Source: a virus (taxonomy: Duplodnaviria > Heunggongvirae > Uroviricota > Caudoviricetes). From it: a DNA stretch of 10,785 nucleotides. The translations under genes were made by a program, and so were the position numbers. The stretch is from the IMG/VR virus record IMGVR_UViG_3300029647_000054, positions 1-10,785 of that record. One strand, written 5' to 3'. Below the pieces are notes generated by a model. It was not told the DNA's origin. It saw only the letters and a program-made list of their open reading frames with translations, and searched no databases. Position 1 is the stretch's first letter. Each line of letters opens with the position of its first letter. Positions 140 to 10,128 of the stretch are shown here, one piece after another.

Positions 140-295
140 TTACTCCTCAGGTTCGTAAGCTGTGAAGACAGTGACCTCCGTCTGGCCGGTTCGGATTCGT
201 ACCTCGCAGAGGTCTTTCCTCGTTACCAGTGCCGTCACAATGACGGTAATACAGATGACGATCAGGGCGACTAACATCGCCTTTTGCTGCTTCAT
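140..295 (-). CDS. hok: Hok/Gef family type I toxin (51 aa, HokD/HokC-like small membrane toxin)
   Basis: In-frame internal ATG at 295 of the 70-aa track ORF; product MKQQKAMLVALIVICITVIVTALVTRKDLCEVRIRTGQTEVTVFTAYEPEE closely matches my recollection of HokD/HokC; SD AGGAG about 7 nt upstream; single TM helix. Confidence 0.85.
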   Translation of the reverse strand: MKQQKAMLVALIVICITVIVTALVTRKDLCEVRIRTGQTEVTVFTAYEPEE

Positions 296-352
296 AGCCT
301 GCTTCTCCTTGCCTTTCGGCGTGTAAGAGGCTAACCTACATGTGACTAGCAT
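140..352 (-). CDS. mok: Mok-like in-frame upstream reading frame that couples hok translation (70 aa)
   Basis: ATG at 352 in the same frame as hok, as recalled for chromosomal mokC/hokC pairs; existence as a separate regulatory frame is inferred from the hok/sok paradigm. Confidence 0.5.
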   Translation of the reverse strand: MLVTCRLASYTPKGKEKQAMKQQKAMLVALIVICITVIVTALVTRKDLCEVRIRTGQTEVTVFTAYEPEE

Positions 353-410
353 GAAATTGGCCTCAGATTAATGTTAAGCGTCCTGCAAGACGCATAATGT
401 TAACTGGGGC
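340..410 (+). ncRNA. sok: Putative Sok-like antisense RNA overlapping the mok start region (approximate)
   Basis: Inferred from hok/sok architecture only; candidate promoter TTGCCT (309-314) - 17 nt - TAACCT (332-337) on the plus strand; no clean terminator seen, ends not determined. Confidence 0.25.
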
Positions 411-510
411 TTTTCTCTGTCTGCCTTACGGTGGCATGCCCGAGGCAGACAGCCTCAAGCACCCGCAGCAATTCTACTTAACTCTCGCTTTACCGCAAAC
501 CGTTTTTACC

Positions 511-764: not shown

Positions 765-1438
765 TGGCGCACCTCCTGCGGCGGTTCTGGTAGCGGCATC
801 CAGTGGGTTACTTTCGATGCCGGTTCTTCCCCATCGTCAGTAACTGCCCACCATTTGTTTCTCGACCAATCGTAATACCCTTCGAAGGTATCGCACTCAG
901 TCCAGCCGTAAGACTTACCCCAACACCAAACATACTGTTTATCGTCCGGAATTCGCTCACTACAGCTTATCCAACCATCCGGAGTTACCGGAGAGCTGGT
1001 TGACGCTTCCGGGATTTTCCGAAAATTATTGGTTGACGAATCTTTATTTTCCCGAAAGTTTCCGGACTGAAGCATGGCTTCGCGGCAATCGTTCCAGCCT
1101 GTAGCGTATGCAGCCGCTTTGCTGCTGCCTTCAACTGGCGCATCCTGCCAATACATTTCTTCCGGCACTACCGGCGCTGGAGGGGCGGCGTAAATGCCCT
1201 CTATCACTAAATGTTTGCGCTCAAAATCATCTGGCTCTCGATGATATACGTAACTCCAATCACCAAGGTTATCATTGCGCCTGCAACGGAAACCTATCGG
1301 CTCTGCTTCCAGCGATGCCAGAGCAATTCGTGCCAGTTCTTCCGCTTCTTCTGCTGGCAGTACAACGTTGCTACCCGGTCCGTATGTTTCGCGCCACTGC
1401 TTGATTGTCAGCAGTCGCTCTTTGGTAATAGTGGTCAT
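761..1438 (-). CDS. DUF551 domain-containing phage protein (225 aa)
   Basis: C-terminal Trp-rich segment (DGWISCSERIPDDKQYVWCWGKSYGWTE...VTHWMPLPEPP) matches the DUF551 pattern I recall from E. coli prophage proteins; ATG start verified. Confidence 0.7.
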   Translation of the reverse strand: MTTITKERLLTIKQWRETYGPGSNVVLPAEEAEELARIALASLEAEPIGFRCRRNDNLGDWSYVYHREPDDFERKHLVIEGIYAAPPAPVVPEEMYWQDAPVEGSSKAAAYATGWNDCREAMLQSGNFRENKDSSTNNFRKIPEASTSSPVTPDGWISCSERIPDDKQYVWCWGKSYGWTECDTFEGYYDWSRNKWWAVTDDGEEPASKVTHWMPLPEPPQEVRQ

Positions 1439-1440
1439 AG

Positions 1441-1629
1441 CTATTTCACCTTAATCTCAACATTTCGCAGCTTTAGCTCTACTGGCAGGTCTGACTTTCC
1501 GGTTAATGCTAATGCGAGATTTTCTGGAGTAATGAGAGCAGTTATTGTTCTACCCATCGCAAGGCGGATAATCAGCCTTATCTCTTCGTCACAAGCGCCA
1601 GGGCGAATAATTGATATTTGTCCGTTCAC
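1441..1629 (-). CDS. Hypothetical small protein (62 aa, GTG start)
   Basis: GTG at 1629 one nt after the upstream TGA, preceded by SD AAAGGAGAG at 5-nt spacing; same geometry as the ATG at 2484. The track's ATG at 1671 would overlap the upstream gene by 41 nt and lacks an SD. Confidence 0.5.
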   Translation of the reverse strand: MNGQISIIRPGACDEEIRLIIRLAMGRTITALITPENLALALTGKSDLPVELKLRNVEIKVK

Positions 1630-1630
1630 C

Positions 1631-1663
1631 TCACTCTCCTTTAATGCGAATGCCAGCGGCGCG
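1631..1663. repeat. Module-junction repeat, copy 1 (about 33 bp, 31/33 identical to copy at 2486-2518)
   Basis: TCACTCTCCTTTAATGCGAATGCCAGCGGCGCG; encodes the shared C-terminal AGIRIKGE tail plus stop and the SD for the next gene. Confidence 0.8.
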
Positions 1664-2164
1664 GGAATCATTCCATCGCTTTACTTCTTCACGAATTACG
1701 TCAATGCATTCTTTCGAATCCATTAGGTAATCTTCATCAAAAAGACGTTCCTGTTCGTTTTCTATCGCAACAATGATTGCTTCAACTAACTTTTGTGCCT
1801 GAGAACCACTTTCTAACTCTGCAATGCGCTGTTTTACGGTATCAAGTTCAATCGATAATTTTTCCAACTGCTCTTTATGCTTCTTGTATTCCTGATATGC
1901 GTGCCAGGACTGACCTTTGCGCACACTATCAGTAATATCAGTAATCTGTTCTGGTGTTAGCGTAGTCAGTGGCTGTGCTGGGAAAATCAGCACTTTCCCG
2001 GAATCCCAATCAAAACCAGCGTGAATTGACTGAACCTCAACTGATGGTGTTGAACCGATGCGACCAGGCGAATGAACAACGATCGTTACATCCATATCTC
2101 GACGATGGCTGTGGTTGCTGGACAAAATACGATTCACCAACTCAGAAAATTTGGAAAATTTCAT
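1631..2164 (-). CDS. Hypothetical protein (177 aa) with coiled-coil C-terminus ending AGIRIKGE
   Basis: ATG at 2164 overlaps the upstream TGA (ATGA), SD AGAGGG at 7 nt; the track ORF's extra 43 N-terminal residues would overlap the upstream gene; last 8 residues identical to the Ea22-like protein. Confidence 0.6.
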
Positions 2165-2484
2165 GTTGATCCCTCTTTCTCTCCCCGGATAATTCTGTTG
2201 CACACATCCACACACTCGTCGCAGATGAAAACGGCGTCCCCAGCAATTAACTTTTTGACGGCGTACTGGGATTTGTTGCAGAAGCTGCAACAAAGTGTTC
2301 GCCTGACTGATAAGGATGGAGCGCCAGATGTCAGCCGCTCCATATCGTTCTTGCGACGCAATATCACACGGCTGAACTCAACCAGTTTCTCCGGGGATAT
2401 CTCCTCCTCCGTAGCGAGCGTCTCTAGTCGTTCGAGTATGTTGAAGGCTTTTTCCTGGGTAATAGCAGAATGCGATGTGGTCAT
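2161..2484 (-). CDS. Small protein with ClpX N-terminal zinc-binding-domain-like C4 zinc finger (107 aa)
   Basis: [38 protein letters not shown] aligns with ClpX N-terminus ([37 protein letters not shown], from memory) with identical CxxC-x18-CxxC spacing; ATG at 2484 with SD AAAGGAGAG. Confidence 0.75.
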
Positions 2485-2485
2485 C

Positions 2486-2518
2486 TCACTCTCCTTTGAT
2501 GCGAATGCCAGCGACGCG
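2486..2518. repeat. Module-junction repeat, copy 2
   Basis: TCACTCTCCTTTGATGCGAATGCCAGCGACGCG; same coding/SD content as copy 1. Confidence 0.8.
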
Positions 2519-3181
2519 TGGCACATTAACTTCCACGATGCGCACATTTGGTTTGTACATCTCAATCGCTGTCAGCCAGTCAGCGCCAGTCATGCGCTTT
2601 TCTGCATCGCCATTAGTCCACTTAACCGGTACACCAATAGCCTTCATCGCGATTTCTATTTCCCCGGCAATGGTGCTTTTTCCGCAACCAGTAAAACCAG
2701 ATACAACGACCAGAACTTCACCTTTGGCTGGTTTTATTTCCCGCGCTTCCAGTTCTGCTATGCGCTTACTTCCATCCGAGATAACACCTTCGTAATACTC
2801 ACGCTGCTCGTTGAGTTTTGATTTTGTCTCCTCAAGCTCAACGCGCAGCTTCCCTACCGTTAACGCAATATCCTCGTTCTCCTGGTCGCGGCGTTTGATG
2901 TATTGCTGGTTTCTTTCCCGTTCATCCAGCAGTGCCAAGACAGCAGTCGGATTGGCCTCTGCTATGAACTCAGCGTTTGCATAAGCCTGAGCATCTGTTT
3001 CAACCAGGCAGTTAACATGACATTCTGCAATCACGCCACCGGGTTCTCCTTTCCATTTTTGACAAACAAAAACTCCTGTTAAATTGCCGTGCTGGTTAAC
3101 AGATGTATGCCCTACGATGTAGCTTCCTTTAGTTGCTTTCTCTGCCTTTTCACGCAGTGCCTGATAGTTAATCTCGCTCAC
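2486..3181 (-). CDS. Ead/Ea22-like protein with C-terminal Walker A (P-loop) motif (231 aa, GTG start)
   Basis: N-terminal region with [20 protein letters not shown] motif typical of Ea22-like proteins as I recall them; central coiled coil; [10 protein letters not shown]-loop; GTG overlaps upstream TGA (GTGA) with SD GGAGGA at 6 nt. Confidence 0.7.
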
Positions 3182-4153: not shown

Positions 4154-4879
4154 TCACTTTTCCGATACAACACGGCGGGAAGAATCAGTAATCTGTCGAA
4201 CAATATCCCGGTGCTTGTTCAGCTCCCGCAGCGCGGCGCAGACTCGCTCCCACTTCTGAACCTGACCTTTTGCCCGGCGCAGCTCGCGGTTAGCCACATG
4301 CAGCGATGGTAAAATCAGACCATCCGGATGTTTTCTGGTGAACGACGGCTGTGACTGCACTGTGACCGCCACACTTTCCGTTTTTATTTCTTCCTGTGTT
4401 TCTGCTTCCCGGACAGGTAACGCAACACCTGCTGGCTGAGGAAAGGCTTTACCGTCGGTTTCCGCTACGGATGCAGCTTCCGGCTCTGCCGGTAAATCAG
4501 CGCCCGGTATGCAGTAACGAAATTTACCGCCCTGATTCACGCGAATCAGACGCCCTTTGCTGATTGCCATGGCCAGCGATGAATTCGCCCGGCGGGAGGT
4601 AATCCCGAACATCAGTGCCAGCTCATCCGCCGTTTGTGGGCCATGTTGTTCAATCGCCTCAGTCAGCATTTGCGCTGTCACTTTCGGTACCGGTGACACC
4701 GGTTCACTTTCACCAGCCTGAATCAGCCGCCACATCGAACCCTTGTTATCCGCTTCACCGCGGCGCTTCAGTTTCCACAGTTCGTTGACCGCATCTTCAC
4801 GGCTGATTCCAAGGCGGGACGCCACTACCTGTGAAGAGGCTCTTTTCAGTGCTTTCAGTGCGTCAAATACGGTTTCCAT
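4154..4879 (-). CDS. Hypothetical phage protein with two winged-helix-like segments (241 aa)
   Basis: ATG at 4879 with SD GGAGG at 8-nt spacing (track start at 4897 is TTG and contains that SD); two internal segments resembling winged-helix DNA-binding folds. Confidence 0.65.
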
Positions 4880-4912
4880 TAAAATTTCCTCCGACAAAAT
4901 CGTTTCTCAGAT

Positions 4913-5575
4913 TCAAATAAAACCAGCTGCCTTCCGGCGTTCGTATTCCTGTTTCAGCCGTTCAATTGGCGTTGGCCCTTGCGGGTGTTTCGCCCCTTCC
5001 AGTTGTCGTCGCACTGGCGGAACACTCATCCCGTTACCAACATGCTTTGCCCATTTCGTCAGTTGCCGTTCCGCAAGTCGTTTTAACTCACCCTGCGTCA
5101 TCTGGCGCTCAATCCCTCTGGTACGCATTTCGAGGCAGATGTGGTACAGCACAGGCTGTGGCCACGGGTATTTATCACTCCCGTCGTATCGCCAGGATTC
5201 ATTGCGCCAGCGCCGGTACTCTTCCATCACGGCATCCACCGTAAGACCAAATGGATTTGCCCCACTCTCCGAAATCAGCGCAACAAACTCAGCCAGGTCC
5301 GGGGGCCACGTTTCACCCGCCCGGCAGCGGTCCATGCACTGACGGCAGACCAGCCGGATTTGCTGTTCAGTCATCGTGCCAATCTGGGCAATCCAGAGCT
5401 TCGAAGGTGCGGCCCCGTTCTTCTGAGTCCAGCGGTTCGAATACACCTCCCCCATAAGCTCCCACAGCTTCCAGGCCATTTCCGTTGCTGATAAATCCGT
5501 TGTCTCGTTCCCACTGTTCGCGTGCTGCCCGGATTTCCTGAACTGCCCGTGATGCCGTGCCACCTGATGCTGCAT
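4913..5575 (-). CDS. Replication protein P-like (lambda P family helicase loader), up to 220 aa
   Basis: Similarity to lambda P as recalled (W-x-A...TMxEQ, FxP-P--F-A, YPW motifs); ATG at 5575 has SD AAGGGGG at 6 nt; start uncertain (alternatives 5479, 5455); overlaps O-like frame. Confidence 0.7.
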   Translation of the reverse strand: MQHQVARHHGQFRKSGQHANSGNETTDLSATEMAWKLWELMGEVYSNRWTQKNGAAPSKLWIAQIGTMTEQQIRLVCRQCMDRCRAGETWPPDLAEFVALISESGANPFGLTVDAVMEEYRRWRNESWRYDGSDKYPWPQPVLYHICLEMRTRGIERQMTQGELKRLAERQLTKWAKHVGNGMSVPPVRRQLEGAKHPQGPTPIERLKQEYERRKAAGFI

Positions 5576-6404
5576 GGCTTACCCCCTTGCTGACTGGTTT
5601 TACCTGTGTCCTGACGTGCTGCACGTGGCGGGCAAATTTCTGCTCCCACTGAACCTGTGTGAAAACCTTCCCCTCCGCCATCCAGTAATCCCGGAATGCG
5701 GCAAGCTCTGCAGGTGTAAATTCCGGCTCAGGCAGAGCCATACCCCACACTGCTGCCCGTTGTCGAAAATCCGACGACGGCTGCCAGACAGTAGTCATCG
5801 AAAATTTCCCGATCGGTTCGCTCAGGCCGTCCAGGTATTCAGGTTCGGCTGTCTGCAACGGCGCACCATGCGACTCACCGGTTGGAGCACTCTCGCGCAT
5901 GCGCGCGTTATGTGTGGGGTTTAATTCTGTATCTGTATCTTTATCTGTCGTGACTTGTCGTGACAGATGCGTGACACGTCGTGACTCATCGTGACAATCA
6001 GCATCATATTTCCGCAGCTTTTCGCGCTCCCGCTGCGCTCTCTTGCGCTCTGCCGGGGATTTTGCCGTTTGCGAAACGTTACCATTGTCCTCTTTCAGCA
6101 CCTGACGTTTTTCCCATCCGGAAATAAGGTCACCATCCAGAACCCGCCCCTGCATTGCATGCAAAATTGAATCAATTACGTCTTCCGTCACATCAAGCGC
6201 ACTTGCTAAATCTTCCGTCGTGACATCAATGTGACCACGTAGTGACACGCCGTGACATGTCGTGACATTTCGTGACGCACTCACCAGAAGGTGGATATAC
6301 ACCGCCATCACTGTTGCGATTGGCTGTCCTGAGACCCTGGCAATGGTTCGCCATTTGGGATCATTTGGCATGTCATGCCACAATCTGAGCCAGGCATTAG
6401 CCAT
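5367..6404 (-). CDS. Replication initiator / replisome organizer (lambda O-like) with internal iterons (345 aa)
   Basis: N-terminus MANAWLRLWHDMPNDPKWR resembles phage replisome-organizer N-domains; iteron clusters inside the coding region; ATG at 6404 with SD GAGG at 5 nt (track start 6410 is GTG). Confidence 0.75.
   Translation of the reverse strand: MANAWLRLWHDMPNDPKWRTIARVSGQPIATVMAVYIHLLVSASRNVTTCHGVSLRGHIDVTTEDLASALDVTEDVIDSILHAMQGRVLDGDLISGWEKRQVLKEDNGNVSQTAKSPAERKRAQREREKLRKYDADCHDESRRVTHLSRQVTTDKDTDTELNPTHNARMRESAPTGESHGAPLQTAEPEYLDGLSEPIGKFSMTTVWQPSSDFRQRAAVWGMALPEPEFTPAELAAFRDYWMAEGKVFTQVQWEQKFARHVQHVRTQVKPVSKGVSHAASGGTASRAVQEIRAAREQWERDNGFISNGNGLEAVGAYGGGVFEPLDSEERGRTFEALDCPDWHDD
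5948..5995. repeat. Iteron cluster 1: five direct repeats of (T/G)CGTGAC at 10-11 bp spacing, preceded by a 6-bp periodic (TATCTG-like) tract
   Basis: CGTGAC at 5949, 5959, 5970, 5980, 5990; adjacent tract 5924-5947; read directly. Confidence 0.7.
6220..6276. repeat. Iteron cluster 2: six direct repeats of GTGAC at 10-11 bp spacing
   Basis: GTGAC at 6220, 6231, 6242, 6252, 6262, 6272; read directly; about 270 bp from cluster 1, both inside the O-like gene. Confidence 0.7.
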
Positions 6405-6472
6405 ACTCACCTCATCTGATACCGAACTTTACCCTCGAACATCCGGAAGAAATCCGGCATGAATATTGTTGG

Positions 6473-6898
6473 TCAATGCACGACAACAGCATTACCAGGC
6501 TGACCACCACTGTTAGTCAGGGTGCCCCAGGCGATCGCCGCTGCGACAAAATCATCCACATCTTTCACCAGCCGATCCCTCCGTTCGACGATCTCACGGT
6601 AATATTCAGAGCTGTGACTGCGCATACGGGCCACCAGCAAAGGCGGCATCGCCTTTTCGATCGCCGGTAACAGAGCCTGCATTTTTTCAACAGCATCAGG
6701 GGTGTCTTTATCCAGCCAACGGAAAATTTTCTGGGTATTACGGGCCAGGGCTTCCGGATGGCTGTCGTCATACAGTTCCGGGAACGTCATTCCCAGCTCG
6801 AAATACGCTTTGGTAATTTTCGCAGCCGGTACTTTTTCGCCGTCCGGATGCGCCCAGACATTCATCGCCATGCGGATGTGTTCATGCTTGATTTTCAT
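6473..6898 (-). CDS. YdaT-like protein in the cII position (141 aa)
   Basis: Starts MKIKHEHI and ends VVVH as I recall for Rac YdaT; ATG overlaps the Cro-like gene's TGA (ATGA); family assignment from memory only. Confidence 0.55.
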   Translation of the reverse strand: MKIKHEHIRMAMNVWAHPDGEKVPAAKITKAYFELGMTFPELYDDSHPEALARNTQKIFRWLDKDTPDAVEKMQALLPAIEKAMPPLLVARMRSHSSEYYREIVERRDRLVKDVDDFVAAAIAWGTLTNSGGQPGNAVVVH

Positions 6899-7158
6899 GA
6901 ATCAACTCCCAGCGCGGGTTGTGTGTTAGCCTGATAGTCAACAGGTATGCCATCGGTTGGGTTGGGGTAAGTACTGCTATCAATCTCGTGCGGGGTCACT
7001 ACCCACCCTGTTGCTTCACACCAGCGTAAAACTTTCCCCCCCGTAAGTTTCGCCCGTCCAGTAATAACATGGCTTACCATCCCTTGGGTTACCCCAACAA
7101 TTTCAGCAAAATCTTTCTGGGTTATACGGGAATGATGCAAATATTCTCCAAGATTCAT
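6895..7158 (-). CDS. Cro-like HTH transcriptional regulator (YdaS/Cro family, 87 aa)
   Basis: HTH segment QKDFAEIVGVTQGMVSHVITG; divergent from the CI-like repressor across an operator-containing intergenic region; SD GAGGTG 4 nt before ATG. Confidence 0.75.
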   Translation of the reverse strand: MNLGEYLHHSRITQKDFAEIVGVTQGMVSHVITGRAKLTGGKVLRWCEATGWVVTPHEIDSSTYPNPTDGIPVDYQANTQPALGVDS

Positions 7159-7188: not shown

Positions 7189-7230
7189 TTAATAGCATTG
7201 TTATTTTTAAAAGTAAATAGCACTGCTATT
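7189..7230. promoter_or_regulatory. OR-like region: two 15-bp palindromic operators plus a PR-like promoter for the Cro-like gene
   Basis: Operators AATAGCATTGTTATT (7191-7205) and AATAGCACTGCTATT (7216-7230); on the minus strand TTTACT (-35, 7217-7212), 17-nt spacer, TATTAA (-10, 7194-7189). Confidence 0.65.
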
Positions 7231-7265
7231 TCAAAGAGATTAATAATCTTATTAGAATTGAAGGT

Positions 7266-7766
7266 ATGAAAAGAAAACCCCTGTCAGAGATCGACCTGCA
7301 AGCCGCCCAGAGACTGAAAGAAATCTGGACGACGAAAAAAACTCAACTTGGGTTAACCCAAGAGCGTGCGGCAGAAATTCTGGGTTTTTCGACACAAGGG
7401 GCAGTAAGCCATTATCTAAATGGTCAGACACCTTTAAATCTAGAGGCTGTTATCAAGTTCGCTGGGTTGCTACAAGTTCCGCCTGAGTCAATTAGACCAG
7501 ATATGGCAGACTTGTTACGAATTGTAAGGATGTACCCCCAAGAACTGCAGCAGGATAATGTTGTCGCTTTACCCGCAGAGATGGAACAATCGGAAAACGA
7601 ACTTCCGTTTAATATAGAACCTATAGAGCGAGATTTGATCCAGACGTTCAGGGCTTTCCCAAAAGAAGACAAAGAGAAAATGCTTAAGGAAATGAAGGAG
7701 AAAAAAGAATCAATTGAAGAAACCGTTGCGCGGTGGCTAGAGGCGCAAAAAGGTCTTCGCGCCTAA
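7266..7766 (+). CDS. paaR: CI-like HTH repressor, regulator of the three-component TA module (PaaR-like, 166 aa); no S24 peptidase domain
   Basis: N-terminal HTH (LGLTQERAAEILGFSTQGAVSHYLNG); divergent from Cro-like gene; directly upstream of antitoxin-toxin pair; C-terminus too short and lacks a LexA-like autocleavage domain. Confidence 0.75.
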   Translation: MKRKPLSEIDLQAAQRLKEIWTTKKTQLGLTQERAAEILGFSTQGAVSHYLNGQTPLNLEAVIKFAGLLQVPPESIRPDMADLLRIVRMYPQELQQDNVVALPAEMEQSENELPFNIEPIERDLIQTFRAFPKEDKEKMLKEMKEKKESIEETVARWLEAQKGLRA

Positions 7767-7783: not shown

Positions 7784-7975
7784 ATGAGTACAGTCCTTTC
7801 CCCGATAATTTCAGAATTTGAAACAATCGAACAAGAAAACAGCTATAACGAATGGTTACGCACCAAAGTGGCAGCAAGCCTCGCAGACCCCCGTCCTGCA
7901 ATTCCGCATGACGAAGTAATGGCTGAAATGGAAAACCTTATTGCGCAAATAGCTTCGACGAACAGGAGTGAGTAA
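7784..7975 (+). CDS. paaA: PaaA-like antitoxin (63 aa)
   Basis: 63-aa acidic protein immediately upstream of and overlapping (TAATG) the ParE toxin gene; matches my recollection of the PaaA2 antitoxin from E. coli O157 paaR2-paaA2-parE2; SD GAGGAGG at 8 nt. Confidence 0.7.
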   Translation: MSTVLSPIISEFETIEQENSYNEWLRTKVAASLADPRPAIPHDEVMAEMENLIAQIASTNRSE

Positions 7976-8265
7976 TGCTGCCCATTTTATGGCTACCTTC
8001 TGCGCGTGATGATTTGCGTCAGATCGTAGCCTATATTGCCAAGGAAAACCCTCCCGCTGCACGTAGACTAAAAATACGCATTGAAACATCAGTTTTGTCA
8101 CTTACTGAACACCCTTACCTGTATCCACCAAGCGAAAGAGCCCTAGGCCTTCGTGAGATAGTGACCCATCCTAACTACATAATACTTTACCGAGTAACAG
8201 CATCTAACATCGAGATCGTAAATGTAGTTCACTCACGAAGGCAGTATCCAAACAAAAGCTGTTAA
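7975..8265 (+). CDS. parE: ParE/RelE-superfamily toxin (ParE-like, 96 aa)
   Basis: Typical ParE sequence features (LPILWLPSARDDLRQIVAYI...EHPYLYPPSE...REIV); start overlaps antitoxin stop by 1 nt. Confidence 0.8.
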   Translation: MLPILWLPSARDDLRQIVAYIAKENPPAARRLKIRIETSVLSLTEHPYLYPPSERALGLREIVTHPNYIILYRVTASNIEIVNVVHSRRQYPNKSC

Positions 8266-8320: not shown

Positions 8321-8362
8321 AATAGCATTACTATTTACAGAATAAAATAGCAGTGCTATTGT
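8321..8362 (+). promoter_or_regulatory. OL-like region: two 15-bp palindromic operators plus a PL-like promoter driving the dicB-type operon
   Basis: Operators AATAGCATTACTATT (8321-8335) and AATAGCAGTGCTATT (8346-8360); TTTACA (-35, 8334-8339), 17-nt spacer, TATTGT (-10, 8357-8362); mirrors the OR architecture. Confidence 0.65.
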
Positions 8363-8789: not shown

Positions 8790-9236
8790 CTAACCACAAA
8801 GGAATCGCATCAATTTGGATTTTGCAGACAGTTTCTCTTGTTGTTCTACGGAGATTCCTATTTTGATCTGGGTTTTTAAGATTGCGATATCTTTAAGCGA
8901 CGACCAAATATTATCATCTGTTTTTTCCAGGAGCTTTAACTGCATTTTCAATTCCGAATCGGAATATTTTTCTGCATCATCATAAAGCTGCAGATATTCT
9001 GCGGATTTTCTCATTGCGTTACCTGACTTTTGTCCGAATCCGTAAATCGTTTGAACGGTTGCTATCACAACAATGAGAACTCCAGAAACTTCAGGAATAA
9101 ATCCACCAATGACAGATGAACCGAGGATAATACTCACCACTGAGAAAAGTTTATCGAGACGACCAGTCGCTACAGAGAATAGTTGTTCAAGAAAATAACC
9201 ATATAAAACCCTGTCAAGAATATCATCCCGGTCCAT
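8790..9236 (-). CDS. AT-rich two-TM membrane protein with coiled-coil-like C-terminus (148 aa); candidate superinfection-exclusion (sieB-position) protein
   Basis: Opposite strand to the surrounding operon; SD AGGTG at 8 nt; hydrophobic segments LFSVVSIILGSSVIGGFI and VLIVVIATVQTIYGF; clearly lower GC than neighbours; function inferred from position. Confidence 0.55.
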   Translation of the reverse strand: MDRDDILDRVLYGYFLEQLFSVATGRLDKLFSVVSIILGSSVIGGFIPEVSGVLIVVIATVQTIYGFGQKSGNAMRKSAEYLQLYDDAEKYSDSELKMQLKLLEKTDDNIWSSLKDIAILKTQIKIGISVEQQEKLSAKSKLMRFLCG

Positions 9237-9699: not shown

Positions 9700-9757
9700 C
9701 CATGTGTAGTATTTGGTGGCATCAGTTCTACTCCGTGACTGCTCTGCCACCCTTTTT
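9700..9757 (+). ncRNA. dicF: DicF-like small RNA (ftsZ-targeting sRNA family) with intrinsic terminator
   Basis: TTTGGTGGCATCAGTTCTACTCCGTGACTGCTCTGCCACCCTTTTT closely matches my recollection of K-12 DicF, with compensatory stem changes; sits directly upstream of dicB as in Qin. Confidence 0.7.
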
Positions 9758-9939: not shown

Positions 9940-10128
9940 ATGGAAACGTTATTACCAAACGTTAATACGTCTGAAGGTTGTTTTGATATTGGTGTTCTGC
10001 TCAGTAACCGGGAGTTTACGGAAGATGCCATTAAGATGAGAAAATATGAACCTTATCTTCTCAATGATAATTCCATACTTTCCAGAATTGCCCTTCTTGA
10101 ACTTGGTATTATCGGAGAACAGCAGTGA
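9940..10128 (+). CDS. dicB: Cell division inhibitor DicB (62 aa)
   Basis: N-terminal 35 residues (METLLPNVNTSEGCFDIGV...FTEDAI) closely match K-12 DicB as recalled; C-terminus diverges; SD GAGGA at 7 nt. Confidence 0.85.
   Translation: METLLPNVNTSEGCFDIGVLLSNREFTEDAIKMRKYEPYLLNDNSILSRIALLELGIIGEQQ

Follow-up and report, generated by a model that had tools for sequence, protein, structure and literature searches.

Introduction

The closest described counterpart of the locus discussed here is the immunity region of CP-933P (Sp12), a prophage of Escherichia coli O157:H7 in which paaR2-paaA2-parE2 stands divergent from ydaS-ydaT (Jurenas 2021, PMC8630535; Prolic-Kalinsek 2023, PMC9986795, PDB 8bt1), and whose YdaT, described there as an analogue of lambda CII, has been shown to tetramerise, to bind an operator, to activate transcription and to be non-toxic (PMC8630535, PMC9986795). 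The promoter that it activates, which is of the PRE type and points to the repressor operon, is PRE933P (PMC8630535), and the protein was reported to have no toxic effect and to be 'not a bona fide TA' (Jurenas 2021, PMC8630535). A Cro-like gene and a YdaT-family gene are also found divergent from the repressor gene in Rac of K-12 (racR-ydaS-ydaT; PMC5700377, PMC5700373, PMC11879457), with the difference that Rac YdaT, a toxic protein, binds to the racR-ydaS spacer and switches on the host rcsA promoter, to which its toxicity has been linked, while none of this holds for the CP-933P type, which is unable to activate rcsA (Wons et al. 2025, PMC11879457); the Rac and CP-933P proteins do, nevertheless, cross-activate via the YdaT-box (PMC11879457). 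Two further systems invite comparison, namely the Cro-CII/PRE arrangement of lambda and the dicA-dicC-ydfX/dicF-dicB-ydfD region of the K-12 prophage Qin.

In this article, I consider a Cro-like gene and a ydaT gene in a stretch of 10,785 nucleotides (the window, by which I mean the whole of the DNA analysed), and I put at roughly 85% the probability that the two encode the Cro-type and CII-type immunity-switch regulators of a defective lambdoid E. coli prophage lying next to potC. The chief value of the analysis is a correction, in that the database name 'toxin YdaT' invites the gene to be miscounted as a poison, when the nearest characterised relative of its product is a non-toxic transcription activator of a lysis-lysogeny switch. 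The features on which the argument draws are collected in Table 1.

Table 1. Features of the immunity region, in window coordinates (., no strand assigned)
Feature	Position	Strand	Remarks
P-like replication gene	4913-5575	minus	downstream of ydaT, beyond the O-like gene
O-like replication gene	5367-6410	minus	DnaT-domain; downstream of ydaT
ydaT gene	6473..6898	minus	141 aa; lambda CII analogue, POU-like HTH domain and C-terminal tetramerisation helix
YdaT operator (OM / 'YdaT-box'), TTGATTttcatgAATCAA	6888..6905	.	centred on the ATGA junction, contains the ydaT ATG
ATGA stop/start overlap, cro-like/ydaT	6895..6898	minus	direct sequence reading; translational coupling
Cro-like HTH gene	6895..7158	minus	87 aa, ATG start; from the open reading frame list
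Candidate extended -10 (TGtTAGCCT) of a YdaT-dependent PRE-type promoter	6924..6932	+	predicted; conserved spacing to the box
Candidate PR	7189..7217	minus	-35 TTTACT (7217-7212), 17-nt spacer, TGcTATTAA (-10 at 7194-7189); consensus match only
Candidate OR-type operator pair, AATAGCAtTGtTATT and AATAGCAcTGCTATT	7191..7230	.	7191-7205 and 7216-7230; 25 bp apart
Candidate PRM	7230..7258	+	TTCAAA-17-TAGAAT; predicted
Immunity repressor gene	7266..7766	+	166 aa; lambda-CI-like N-terminal HTH, PaaR2/DicA-like C-terminal region
PaaA2-like antitoxin gene	7784-7975	+	PF21217, E=2.9e-22
ParE2-like toxin gene	7975-8265	+	PF05016, E=4e-18
Candidate OL-type operator pair, AATAGCAtTaCTATT and AATAGCAgTGCTATT	8321..8360	.	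25 bp apart; upstream of the DUF1391-...-dicF-dicB-ydfD-like genes

A gene pair in the Cro-CII position

The first-pass annotation of this DNA had described a Cro-like HTH gene joined by an ATGA overlap to a gene for a 141-residue protein, the two occupying the Cro-cII position, and this description holds: both reading frames and the overlap are present, and the pair is flanked by the divergent repressor gene on one side and on the other by the O-like and P-like genes, which are recognised by PF17948 (E=7.5e-17) and PF06992 (E=1e-15) and by matches to phrog_1408 and phrog_109. From the positions of the reading frames the Cro-like gene is the first of a rightward (PR-type) operon divergent from the repressor, and on a 100% identical chromosome (NZ_CM129862.1) RefSeq likewise annotates both genes. 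By direct reading of the sequence, GAGGTG precedes the ATG of the Cro-like gene, and GGGAG (6910-6906) stands 7 nt upstream of the ydaT ATG.

With CP-933P the locus shares its gene order (repressor-antitoxin-toxin divergent from cro-ydaT-O-P), a PaaA/ParE-type toxin-antitoxin operon after the repressor followed by an operator pair past that operon (PL/OL-like), and the 4-nt ATGA overlap, which a comparison of junctions also found in four other loci; in four comparison loci the cro and ydaT genes overlap by 17 nt, in a different frame. Unrelated cro genes run through the box sequence at this junction, some in one frame and some in another. The replication genes differ, those of CP-933P encoding an HTH protein and an ATPase, and Rac differs in that K-12 ydaS and ydaT do not overlap but lie 22 nt apart and in that racR has no toxin-antitoxin genes behind it. 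The position between repressor and O is also that of Cro and CII in lambda, and the wider order (hokD ... ydaT-like, cro-like, divergent repressor, DUF1391, dicF, dicB, ydfD) is that of Qin, to whose YdfD the window YdfD-like protein is 48% identical; in Qin, however, the ydaT position is held by YdfX, a truncated 96-aa YdaT relative (36% identity over 95 residues) without the oligomerisation helix that the full-length window YdaT possesses.

A probable lambda CII analogue close to CP-933P YdaT

The first-pass annotation had also likened the 141-aa protein to Rac YdaT, and while the family is right (PF06254 YdaT_toxin with a score of 41.1 bits, the cut-off being 21, and E=2.6e-10 over positions 1-53 of the 92 in the profile), the particular relative is less well chosen, identity to Rac YdaT being only 32% and that to CP-933P YdaT (PDB 8bt1) 91.5%, or 129 of 141 residues. 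Searches with phmmer give E=1.9e-83 against PDB 8bt1 and E=5.2e-76 against PDB 3c4r, the protein matches phrog_163 'CII-like transcriptional activator' (E=4.8e-47), and phage homologues carry cII activator annotation. Residues 1-119, which take in the DNA-binding domain and the greater part of the tetramerisation helix, are exactly those of CP-933P YdaT, and the 12 differences all fall in residues 120-139, where helix alpha6 makes its final turns and is followed by a tail disordered in the crystal; since the published structure was built for residues 2-124, identity over 2-119 covers all ordered residues but five. The recognition helix alpha3 (A50-D63) of the POU-like HTH domain lies within the identical part, and R60-W61 align with R57-W58 of Rac YdaT, in which H56A R57A abolishes binding and the tryptophan after R57 keeps the fold of the domain (PMC11879457). 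The seven residues described as the core of the tetramer (I103, L110, V111, V114, F117, V118, A121; PMC9986795) are all found as well, so that the window protein would be expected to form a tetramer through its C-terminal helix alpha6.

Neither Phage_CII nor the lambda Cro family is among the Pfam matches of the pair (for YdaT, at E<=0.01), and published work reports no detectable sequence similarity between YdaT and lambda CII. YdaT is a functional analogue of lambda CII and not a member of its family, as its Pfam matches do not include that family. It differs from CII in its POU-like HTH fold and in its site, an inverted repeat (TTGATT-N6-AATCAA) overlapping the ydaT start codon and the cro stop, where lambda CII recognises the direct repeat TTGC-N6-TTGC.

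The Cro-like partner, the repressor and their operators

The 87-aa partner passes Pfam HTH_3 (26.9 bits, cut-off 23) and matches phrog_35 'transcriptional repressor' (E=3.7e-16), but with the PF15943 YdaS model it has no match even at E<=1, whereas K-12 YdaS (107.7 bits), CP-933P YdaS (46.5) and the proteins of two comparison loci, L098 (37.8) and L099 (30.9), all exceed the cut-off of 30. Because it is 47% identical (E=5e-27) to the RefSeq 'YdaS family' protein of L099, it is, on sequence identity, a divergent YdaS relative that the model misses; to CP-933P YdaS it is 28% identical (E=1e-5, local). An HTH_3 domain, a place as first gene divergent from the repressor and candidate operators in the spacer all mark it as a putative switch regulator of the Cro/CI type (XRE, HTH_3). 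The idea of a HigA/HipB-type antitoxin was rejected because the NCBIfam scores lie far under the cut-offs (HipB-like 25.1 against 71.65 bits, HigA 21.3 against 47.7), and with these models the partner falls in no recognised antitoxin family.

The repressor combines an HTH_3 domain (E=1.7e-9) whose N-terminus is homologous to that of lambda CI (E=1.6e-9 to the lambda repressor N-terminal domain, 1lmb) with a C-terminal region that matches the C-terminus of Qin DicA and whose last 44 residues are 48% identical to PaaR2 (E=2e-13); no peptidase domain was detected in its 166 residues. PaaR2 itself, of 123 aa, was considered and rejected as its identity, because the relation is limited to those 44 residues and the N-terminal domain is lambda-CI-like. 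Directly downstream and in the same orientation follow paaA-parE, whose products match PDB 3zbe and 5cw7 and are 63.5% and 64% identical to PaaA2 and ParE2 of CP-933P.

Palindromic operators AATAGCAnTGCTATT, which differ from the CP-933P consensus GTTTAGTAA, occur four times in the window, two in the 107-bp spacer between repressor and Cro-like gene and two past the toxin-antitoxin operon, the second pair with the same spacing as the first, and four matches to the pattern were reached in 0 of 200 shuffles. By eye, no convincing third operator is seen 25 bp to either side of the OR-type pair. Both OR-type operators overlap the candidate PR, and the Cro-like protein and the repressor presumably bind these operators in common. 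The candidate PRM would begin transcription on the repressor ATG at 7266 and so give a leaderless mRNA, for which leaderless paaR2 and lambda cI are precedents (PMC8630535).

The YdaT-box and a candidate promoter beside it

TTGATT-N6-AATCAA has a single zero-mismatch match in the 10.8-kb window, which has the same sequence and place as the site that CP-933P YdaT protects in footprints (PMC9986795), the DNA of the two prophages being identical from ydaT through the box to window position 6909; it is one base off the Rac YdaT-box ATGATTCATGAAAATCAA, which also lies on the ydaT ATG (PMC11879457). YdaT would be expected, from this identity of protein and site, to bind here. A hexamer TAnnnT begins 20-21 nt past the box in the window (21 nt) and in 14 comparison loci belonging to 10 unrelated flank families, among them Klebsiella, Actinobacillus and Stenotrophomonas phages, against a background rate of 1.1% per position, the 20/21-nt rule having been derived post hoc. 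In Rac the hexamer is TATGAT, at 20 nt. In the window the hexamer, TAGCCT, matches three of six consensus positions and is accompanied by no -35 element, and the box centre falls near -42; the predicted start at about 6939 would send a transcript through cro, antisense to it, in the direction of the repressor operon, and no terminator-like site was found on the + strand between 6300 and 7400. The conserved spacing of box and -10 suggests an activator-dependent promoter firing antisense through cro and may indicate where the YdaT-dependent promoter sits, a matter on which publications differ, with 6924-6932 as the best guess for its exact position.

The published reporter fragment for PRE933P, judging by its primers, begins no more than 18 bp ahead of the box and ends about 85 bp past it, the YdaT-dependent start has been placed within the operator ('OM contains the alternative transcription start', PMC9986795), and the Rac promoter PracR4 has been placed about 190 bp from the box (PMC11879457). 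These placements conflict with one another and in part with the present candidate. As for further YdaT-activated promoters in the window (analogues of PI or PaQ), there is just one more box-like site, at 4532-4549, and neither of its flanks has a -10-like hexamer at the appropriate spacing. A search for the exact 18-mer TTGATTCATGAAAATCAA in one genome per species returned 91 stretches and was uninformative about the taxonomic range of the box: nearly all the matches listed came from unrelated phyla (Bacteroidota, Verrucomicrobia, archaea and others) and were taken as chance occurrences of an AT-rich 18-mer in 596 Gb, and among the matches listed only Shigella flexneri appeared relevant; loci from E. 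coli and from phages served for comparison in place of this set.

A proposed lysis-lysogeny switch

Now considering the pair as the Cro-type and CII-type regulators of this prophage, the switch would operate as follows. With the repressor absent or inactive, the PR-type promoter in the spacer would transcribe cro-like, ydaT and the O/P-like genes, the Cro-like protein presumably acting on the same AATAGCAnTGCTATT operators as the repressor and ydaT being translated in coupling with cro-like; a YdaT tetramer would then bind the box on its own start codon and turn on an otherwise silent leftward promoter, and the resulting transcript, antisense through cro, would enter the repressor-paaA-parE operon and so favour repression (lysogeny), just as CII acts at PRE in lambda. 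The logic proposed is that of lambda, with a tetrameric activator on a repeat over a promoter without a good -35 and a transcript antisense to cro running into the repressor gene, and it has a parallel in Rac, where YdaT activates a leftward promoter toward the repressor. I infer from the shared residues that the properties shown for CP-933P YdaT hold for the window allele.

It could be argued instead that the genes are intact but silent relics, left without a role in a defective prophage whose operon is permanently repressed, and the frameshifted or truncated prophage genes adjacent, the IS4 inserted nearby and the barely detectable Rac ydaST transcripts in normal growth (PMC11879457) would fit such a view. 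It is nonetheless unlikely, given that both reading frames, the YdaT operator, the spacer operators and the toxin-antitoxin operon are all intact, that ydaT of the same type with the junction preserved occurs in 3292 of 5426 complete E. coli genomes, and that the CP-933P immunity region is, by the account given in PMC8630535, demonstrably bistable and active. Another reading makes YdaT mainly a repressor or roadblock that occupies, in the DNA, the ribosome-binding site and start codon of its own gene and limits read-through from PR into ydaT and the replication genes; the operator does span the Shine-Dalgarno-ATG region, and YdaT has been termed a 'CII repressor' that protects up to about 95 nt at high protein concentration (PMC9986795). 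I regard this as very unlikely to be its main role, since reporters show activation by YdaT in both CP-933P (PMC8630535) and Rac (PMC11879457), Rac ydaT expression is unchanged with or without the box (PMC11879457), and the conservation of a -10-like hexamer at constant spacing is to be expected of an activator site. The roadblock and activator roles of YdaT are mutually compatible.

Growth inhibition and its control

The first-pass annotation was correct that Rac YdaT has been reported as toxic (PMC5700377, PMC11879457), and it went on to count the window gene among at least five growth-inhibitory modules under one repressor. Least probable of all, however, is that ydaT is a toxin-like growth-inhibitory module kept under control by the repressor, its Cro-like partner or both in the manner of Rac YdaS/YdaT: the Pfam and RefSeq names say 'YdaT toxin', expression of the Rac protein kills and filaments cells (PMC5700377, PMC11879457) and the C-terminal tail is unlike that of the CP-933P YdaT tested, but the identity to Rac YdaT is low, CP-933P YdaT with the same residues 1-119 is non-toxic and leaves rcsA inactive, the partner resembles neither HipB nor HigA at their cut-offs, and a toxin-antitoxin hypothesis had earlier failed in O157:H7 (Christensen-Dalsgaard 2010, as cited in later work). 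The growth-inhibitory label is not supported, the nearest experimental evidence running counter to a toxic reading, and because YdaT is near-identical to a characterised non-toxic DNA-binding activator, the cro-ydaT pair is probably an ordinary one and not a poison module, with the lack of toxicity expected, from sequence, to carry over to an allele that has a different tail. By analogy, the window YdaT may still be toxic at high dose, because toxicity is reported for Rac YdaT and described for overproduced lambda CII (reference 48 as cited in PMC8630535).

The remaining modules of that count are present, the window carrying hok/sok, PaaA-ParE, DicF, DicB and a YdfD-like gene, but the claim of common repressor control does not extend beyond one group of them. 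Hok, in the hok/sok family, is under the control of Sok antisense RNA. The parE gene is co-transcribed with the repressor and is not repressed by it, and among the growth inhibitors the OL-like operator pair is followed by dicF-dicB-ydfD only, the group to which repressor control is plausibly limited. Hok, ParE, DicF, DicB and the YdfD-like protein are under at least three kinds of control and not one repressor.

Mosaicism and a possible portable cassette

With a Cro-like gene, a 166-aa repressor and AATAGCAnTGCTATT operators all unlike those of CP-933P, the locus is, as read from its sequence, a mosaic immunity variant, in which a CII analogue and operator of the CP-933P type travel as a unit and recombination right at the operator joins this unit to different sets of Cro, repressor and operators and to different PaaA-ParE alleles. 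The possibilities may not end there, as I would give even odds to the proposal that the 18-bp YdaT-box with a -10 hexamer 20-21 nt beyond it is a portable, self-contained PRE cassette in all prophages and phages that carry YdaT, from E. coli to Klebsiella, Actinobacillus and Stenotrophomonas. If so, the box itself would be the place of the YdaT-dependent promoter (class-II-like, with the box centre near -42), also in Rac, where activation is now ascribed to a promoter about 190 bp away, and the junction of cro stop and ydaT start would double as a recombination joint pairing one CII-type activator with any immunity module; the window would then be a recombinant of this kind whose breakpoint lies at 6909/6910. 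The immunity variant of the window is carried by 69 of 5426 complete E. coli genomes.

The cro/ydaT pair and its prophage

The locus assembles immunity parts in a new way around a CII-type cassette that is already known, and its Cro-like/YdaT-like pair is a new allele combination of a well-described prophage switch; the published picture is extended slightly, by the strict spacing between the YdaT operator (the box) and a -10 hexamer and by the role of this box as a mosaic joint. The chromosome of Escherichia coli SW070917 contains the window at 100% identity; there it belongs to a lambdoid prophage adjoining potC, and the pair is annotated as 'helix-turn-helix domain-containing protein' and 'toxin YdaT family protein'. 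The first-pass annotation described the pair and its position correctly: both open reading frames are present with an ATGA stop/start overlap (6895-6898, minus strand) and, since they lie between a divergent repressor gene on one side and O-like/P-like replication genes on the other, they occupy the Cro-CII position. The proposed YdaT family membership was borne out by a profile search, in which the 141-aa protein passed Pfam PF06254 'YdaT_toxin' at 41.1 bits (cut-off 21), and the protein also matched phrog_163 'CII-like transcriptional activator' (E=4.8e-47). In the 87-aa protein Pfam recognises an HTH_3 domain at 26.9 bits (cut-off 23), and among PHROGs the protein matches phrog_35 'transcriptional repressor'; it fails the Pfam YdaS model, which the YdaS proteins of CP-933P and K-12 pass, yet shares 47% identity with a protein of another prophage that RefSeq names 'YdaS family'. 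In the RefSeq annotation several nearby prophage genes carry frameshift or truncation marks (DUF551, a hypothetical protein and ead/Ea22-like; L001 4054-5882, about window 1353-3181), and past dicB lies an IS4 insertion (L001); the prophage is therefore defective.

Features of the window bearing on the cro/ydaT pair and its control
Feature	Position	Strand	Basis or remark
hok	140-352	-	HOK_GEF, E=2.7e-22
Sok RNA	290-464	-	Rfam, 117.6 bits, above gathering score
DUF1627 gene	4154-4897	-	
Second box-like site	4532-4549		CTGATTCACGCGAATCAG, perfect palindrome
YdaT gene, 141 aa	6473..6898	-	ORF, GGGAG 7 nt before ATG
YdaT operator (box)	6888-6905		TTGATTttcatgAATCAA
Cro-like gene, 87 aa	6895..7158	-	ORF, GAGGTG upstream
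Spacer palindromes	7191 and 7216		AATAGCAtTGtTATT and AATAGCAcTGCTATT
Candidate PR		-	TTTACT-17-TGcTATTAA, both operators overlap; consensus match only
Candidate PRM	7230-7266 region	+	TTCAAA-17-TAGAAT; consensus match only
Repressor gene, 166 aa	7266-7766	+	
PaaA-like and ParE-like genes	7784..8265	+	Pfam matches
OL-like operator pair	8321-8360 (starts 8321, 8346)		AATAGCAnTGCTATT
148-aa ORF	8790-9236	-	phrog_6315 (unknown function)
DicF sRNA	9701-9752	+	Rfam, 62 bits, above gathering score
DicB	9940-10128		ORF and annotation
DUF1482 protein (YdfD-like)			48% identical to K-12 YdfD 'lysis protein'

Activator or toxin

A PDB sequence search with the 141-aa protein returned 8bt1 'YdaT_toxin domain-containing protein' (E=1.9e-83) and 3c4r (E=5.2e-76), the former being the YdaT protein that E. 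coli O157:H7 carries on its cryptic prophage CP-933P (PMC9986795). When the CP-933P locus (L005, found via a published primer) and K-12 Rac (L004) were taken as references, the likeness to Rac YdaT noted earlier held at the family level but not as the choice of reference protein, since only 32% of residues are identical to Rac YdaT as against 129 of 141 shared with CP-933P YdaT. Residues 1-119 are identical in the latter comparison, a stretch that includes the whole POU-like HTH domain with its recognition helix A50-D63, and all differences fall within 120-139; of the seven positions described as forming the tetramer core (I103, L110, V111, V114, F117, V118 and A121) none is changed, A121 lying just past the identical stretch.

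The structure of CP-933P YdaT has been solved, the protein was shown to be a tetramer, and footprinting gave its high-affinity site as 5'-TTGATTN6AATCAA-3' (Prolic-Kalinsek et al., 2023, PMC9986795), and this protein leaves PR, PRM and PL unaffected while switching on PRE933P, an otherwise silent promoter at the ydaS/ydaT border (Jurenas et al., 2021, PMC8630535). For Rac YdaT, toxicity has been reported, together with activation of the host promoter of rcsA and binding to a 'YdaT-box' that differs little from this site and lies on the start codon of ydaT (Wons et al., 2025, PMC11879457). The earlier suggestion that the window protein is toxic too was based on this 32%-identical paralogue and is contradicted by the data on CP-933P YdaT, which has the same DNA-binding and oligomerisation parts as the window protein. 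A toxic role is not supported, and present evidence gives no ground for listing YdaT with the growth inhibitors of the window.

An operator that may double as a joint

The box TTGATTttcatgAATCAA is the sole zero-mismatch occurrence in the window, and it takes in the start codon of ydaT (ATG) and the stop codon of cro (TGA). I compared the junction in eleven E. coli loci (the window, CP-933P, K-12 Rac and eight others) with unrelated Cro-like genes, whose products share 15-47% identity with that of the window. The box core TGATTCATGAAAATCA is kept in 10 of the 11, the exception (L002, one of the eight) having GGATT instead of TGATT in the variable half-site, and the outer base of each half-site is variable. 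The cro genes end either as ...GVDS* with a 4-nt overlap (...GDS* and ...NDS* in the pair of loci whose left half-site diverges) or as ...LIHENQA* with a 17-nt overlap (...MIHENQT* in one variant), and as the same 18-bp element is thus read in two different frames by unrelated genes, its conservation is that of DNA and not of protein.

The window and CP-933P are identical in DNA from ydaT across the box and part ways at 6909/6910, immediately past it. By megablast, this ydaT type is found in 3292 of 5426 complete E. coli genomes, the match usually ending between window 6903 and 6924 in the rows sampled, and the whole cro+ydaT combination in only 69 of the 5426. With matches ending here, and 69 genomes against 3292, the junction behaves as a mosaic joint, and these alignments identify the cro stop/ydaT start (window 6903-6924; CP-933P, L005; and the other E. 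coli loci L002, L003 and L097-L102) as a presumptive site of recombination.

Where the YdaT-dependent promoter may sit

In 11 of 11 E. coli loci a TAnnnT hexamer starts 20 or 21 nt past the box in the repressor direction: TAGCCT in the window, with TGt before it as an extended -10, TACAAT in CP-933P, TATGAT in K-12 Rac, and TATCCT, TAGTTT, TAACCT or TAACGT in the others. A tblastn search added four phage loci that are more distant and follow the same rule, namely Klebsiella phages ST405-OXA48phi1.2 (53% identical) and Kp4882-1 (32%), Actinobacillus phage pPE4, and Stenotrophomonas phage vB_SmeS_BUCT708 (L108, with a YdaT-like protein 31% identical). In this last phage the box CTGATTacgcttAATCAA occupies the intergenic cro-cII spacer (848-865) with TAAGCT 20 nt beyond it, so that the operator half-sites and the spacing rule reach well outside Enterobacterales. 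The 15 loci form 10 flank families that are mutually unrelated in sequence (ungapped identity 18-43%), all 10 with the hexamer; given a TAnnnT background of 1.1% per position at other offsets, the nominal joint probability is near 3e-17, a value to be discounted because motif and offsets were picked post hoc.

No usable -35 was found at the right distance from the candidate -10 and the box centre falls near -42, which together read as the geometry of an activator-dependent promoter, resembling lambda PRE. Published accounts of the promoter position disagree, one stating that 'OM contains the alternative transcription start' (PMC9986795) and another ascribing Rac activation to PracR4, about 190 bp from the box (PMC11879457). 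The PRE933P reporter fragment, from published primers mapped here on the CP-933P locus, extends from 18 bp before the box to about 85 bp after it, so the measured YdaT-dependent promoter must fall within that stretch. The most economical reading would place this promoter at the box-proximal -10.

In K-12 Rac the near-consensus hexamer lies 20 nt past the YdaT-box toward racR, and the lacZ fusion of PMC11879457 would pick up transcripts that begin at this closer site as well. A second box-like site, inside the DUF1627 gene, combines two half-site variants that are both found in genuine YdaT-boxes of other loci, and the relaxed box pattern is seen 2 times in the window where 0.06 are expected. 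L002 has retained this site in its homologous gene (CTGATTTACGCGAATCAG), as has K-12 Rac in ydaW, there reverse-complemented, and the partial copy of the gene in CP-933P (L005) appears to lack it; neither flank has a -10-like hexamer at a distance of 20-21 nt. [quoted passage not shown]

Repressor control and the growth inhibitors

The 107-bp spacer between cro and the repressor gene contains two palindromes 25 bp apart, and the same 25-bp spacing recurs in the OL-like pair just past parE and before the DUF1391, dicF, dicB and ydfD-like genes, which is likely a repressor-controlled leftward promoter region. The window has these four palindrome matches, a number reached in none of 200 shuffles, and they differ from the CP-933P operators (consensus GTTTAGTAA; PMC8630535). 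The candidate PRM is the sole promoter-like site that the consensus scan returned, and transcription from it is predicted to begin on the ATG of the repressor gene (7266), which suggests a leaderless repressor mRNA, as known for lambda cI and CP-933P paaR2 (PMC8630535). The repressor is a chimera whose N-terminal HTH domain is lambda-CI-like (1lmb, E=1.6e-9) and whose C-terminal segment of 44 residues is PaaR2/DicA-like; a Pfam search detected no S24 peptidase domain, so the protein is unlikely to cleave itself with the help of RecA and must be induced in another way.

The idea of five growth-inhibitory modules under one repressor survives in part, in that Hok/Sok, PaaA/ParE, DicF, DicB and the YdfD-like protein are present; their control is heterogeneous. 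Hok is controlled by the Sok antisense RNA. The PaaA-like and ParE-like genes (about 64% identical to PaaA2 and ParE2) follow the repressor gene directly and in the same orientation, and parE would therefore be expressed with the repressor rather than repressed by it. Among the inhibitor genes, only dicF-dicB-ydfD-like lies downstream of the OL-like pair. Antisense between this pair and dicF is the 148-aa ORF, whose only match is to a PHROG, with none in Pfam or NCBIfam, and which a PL-type transcript toward dicF/dicB must cross.
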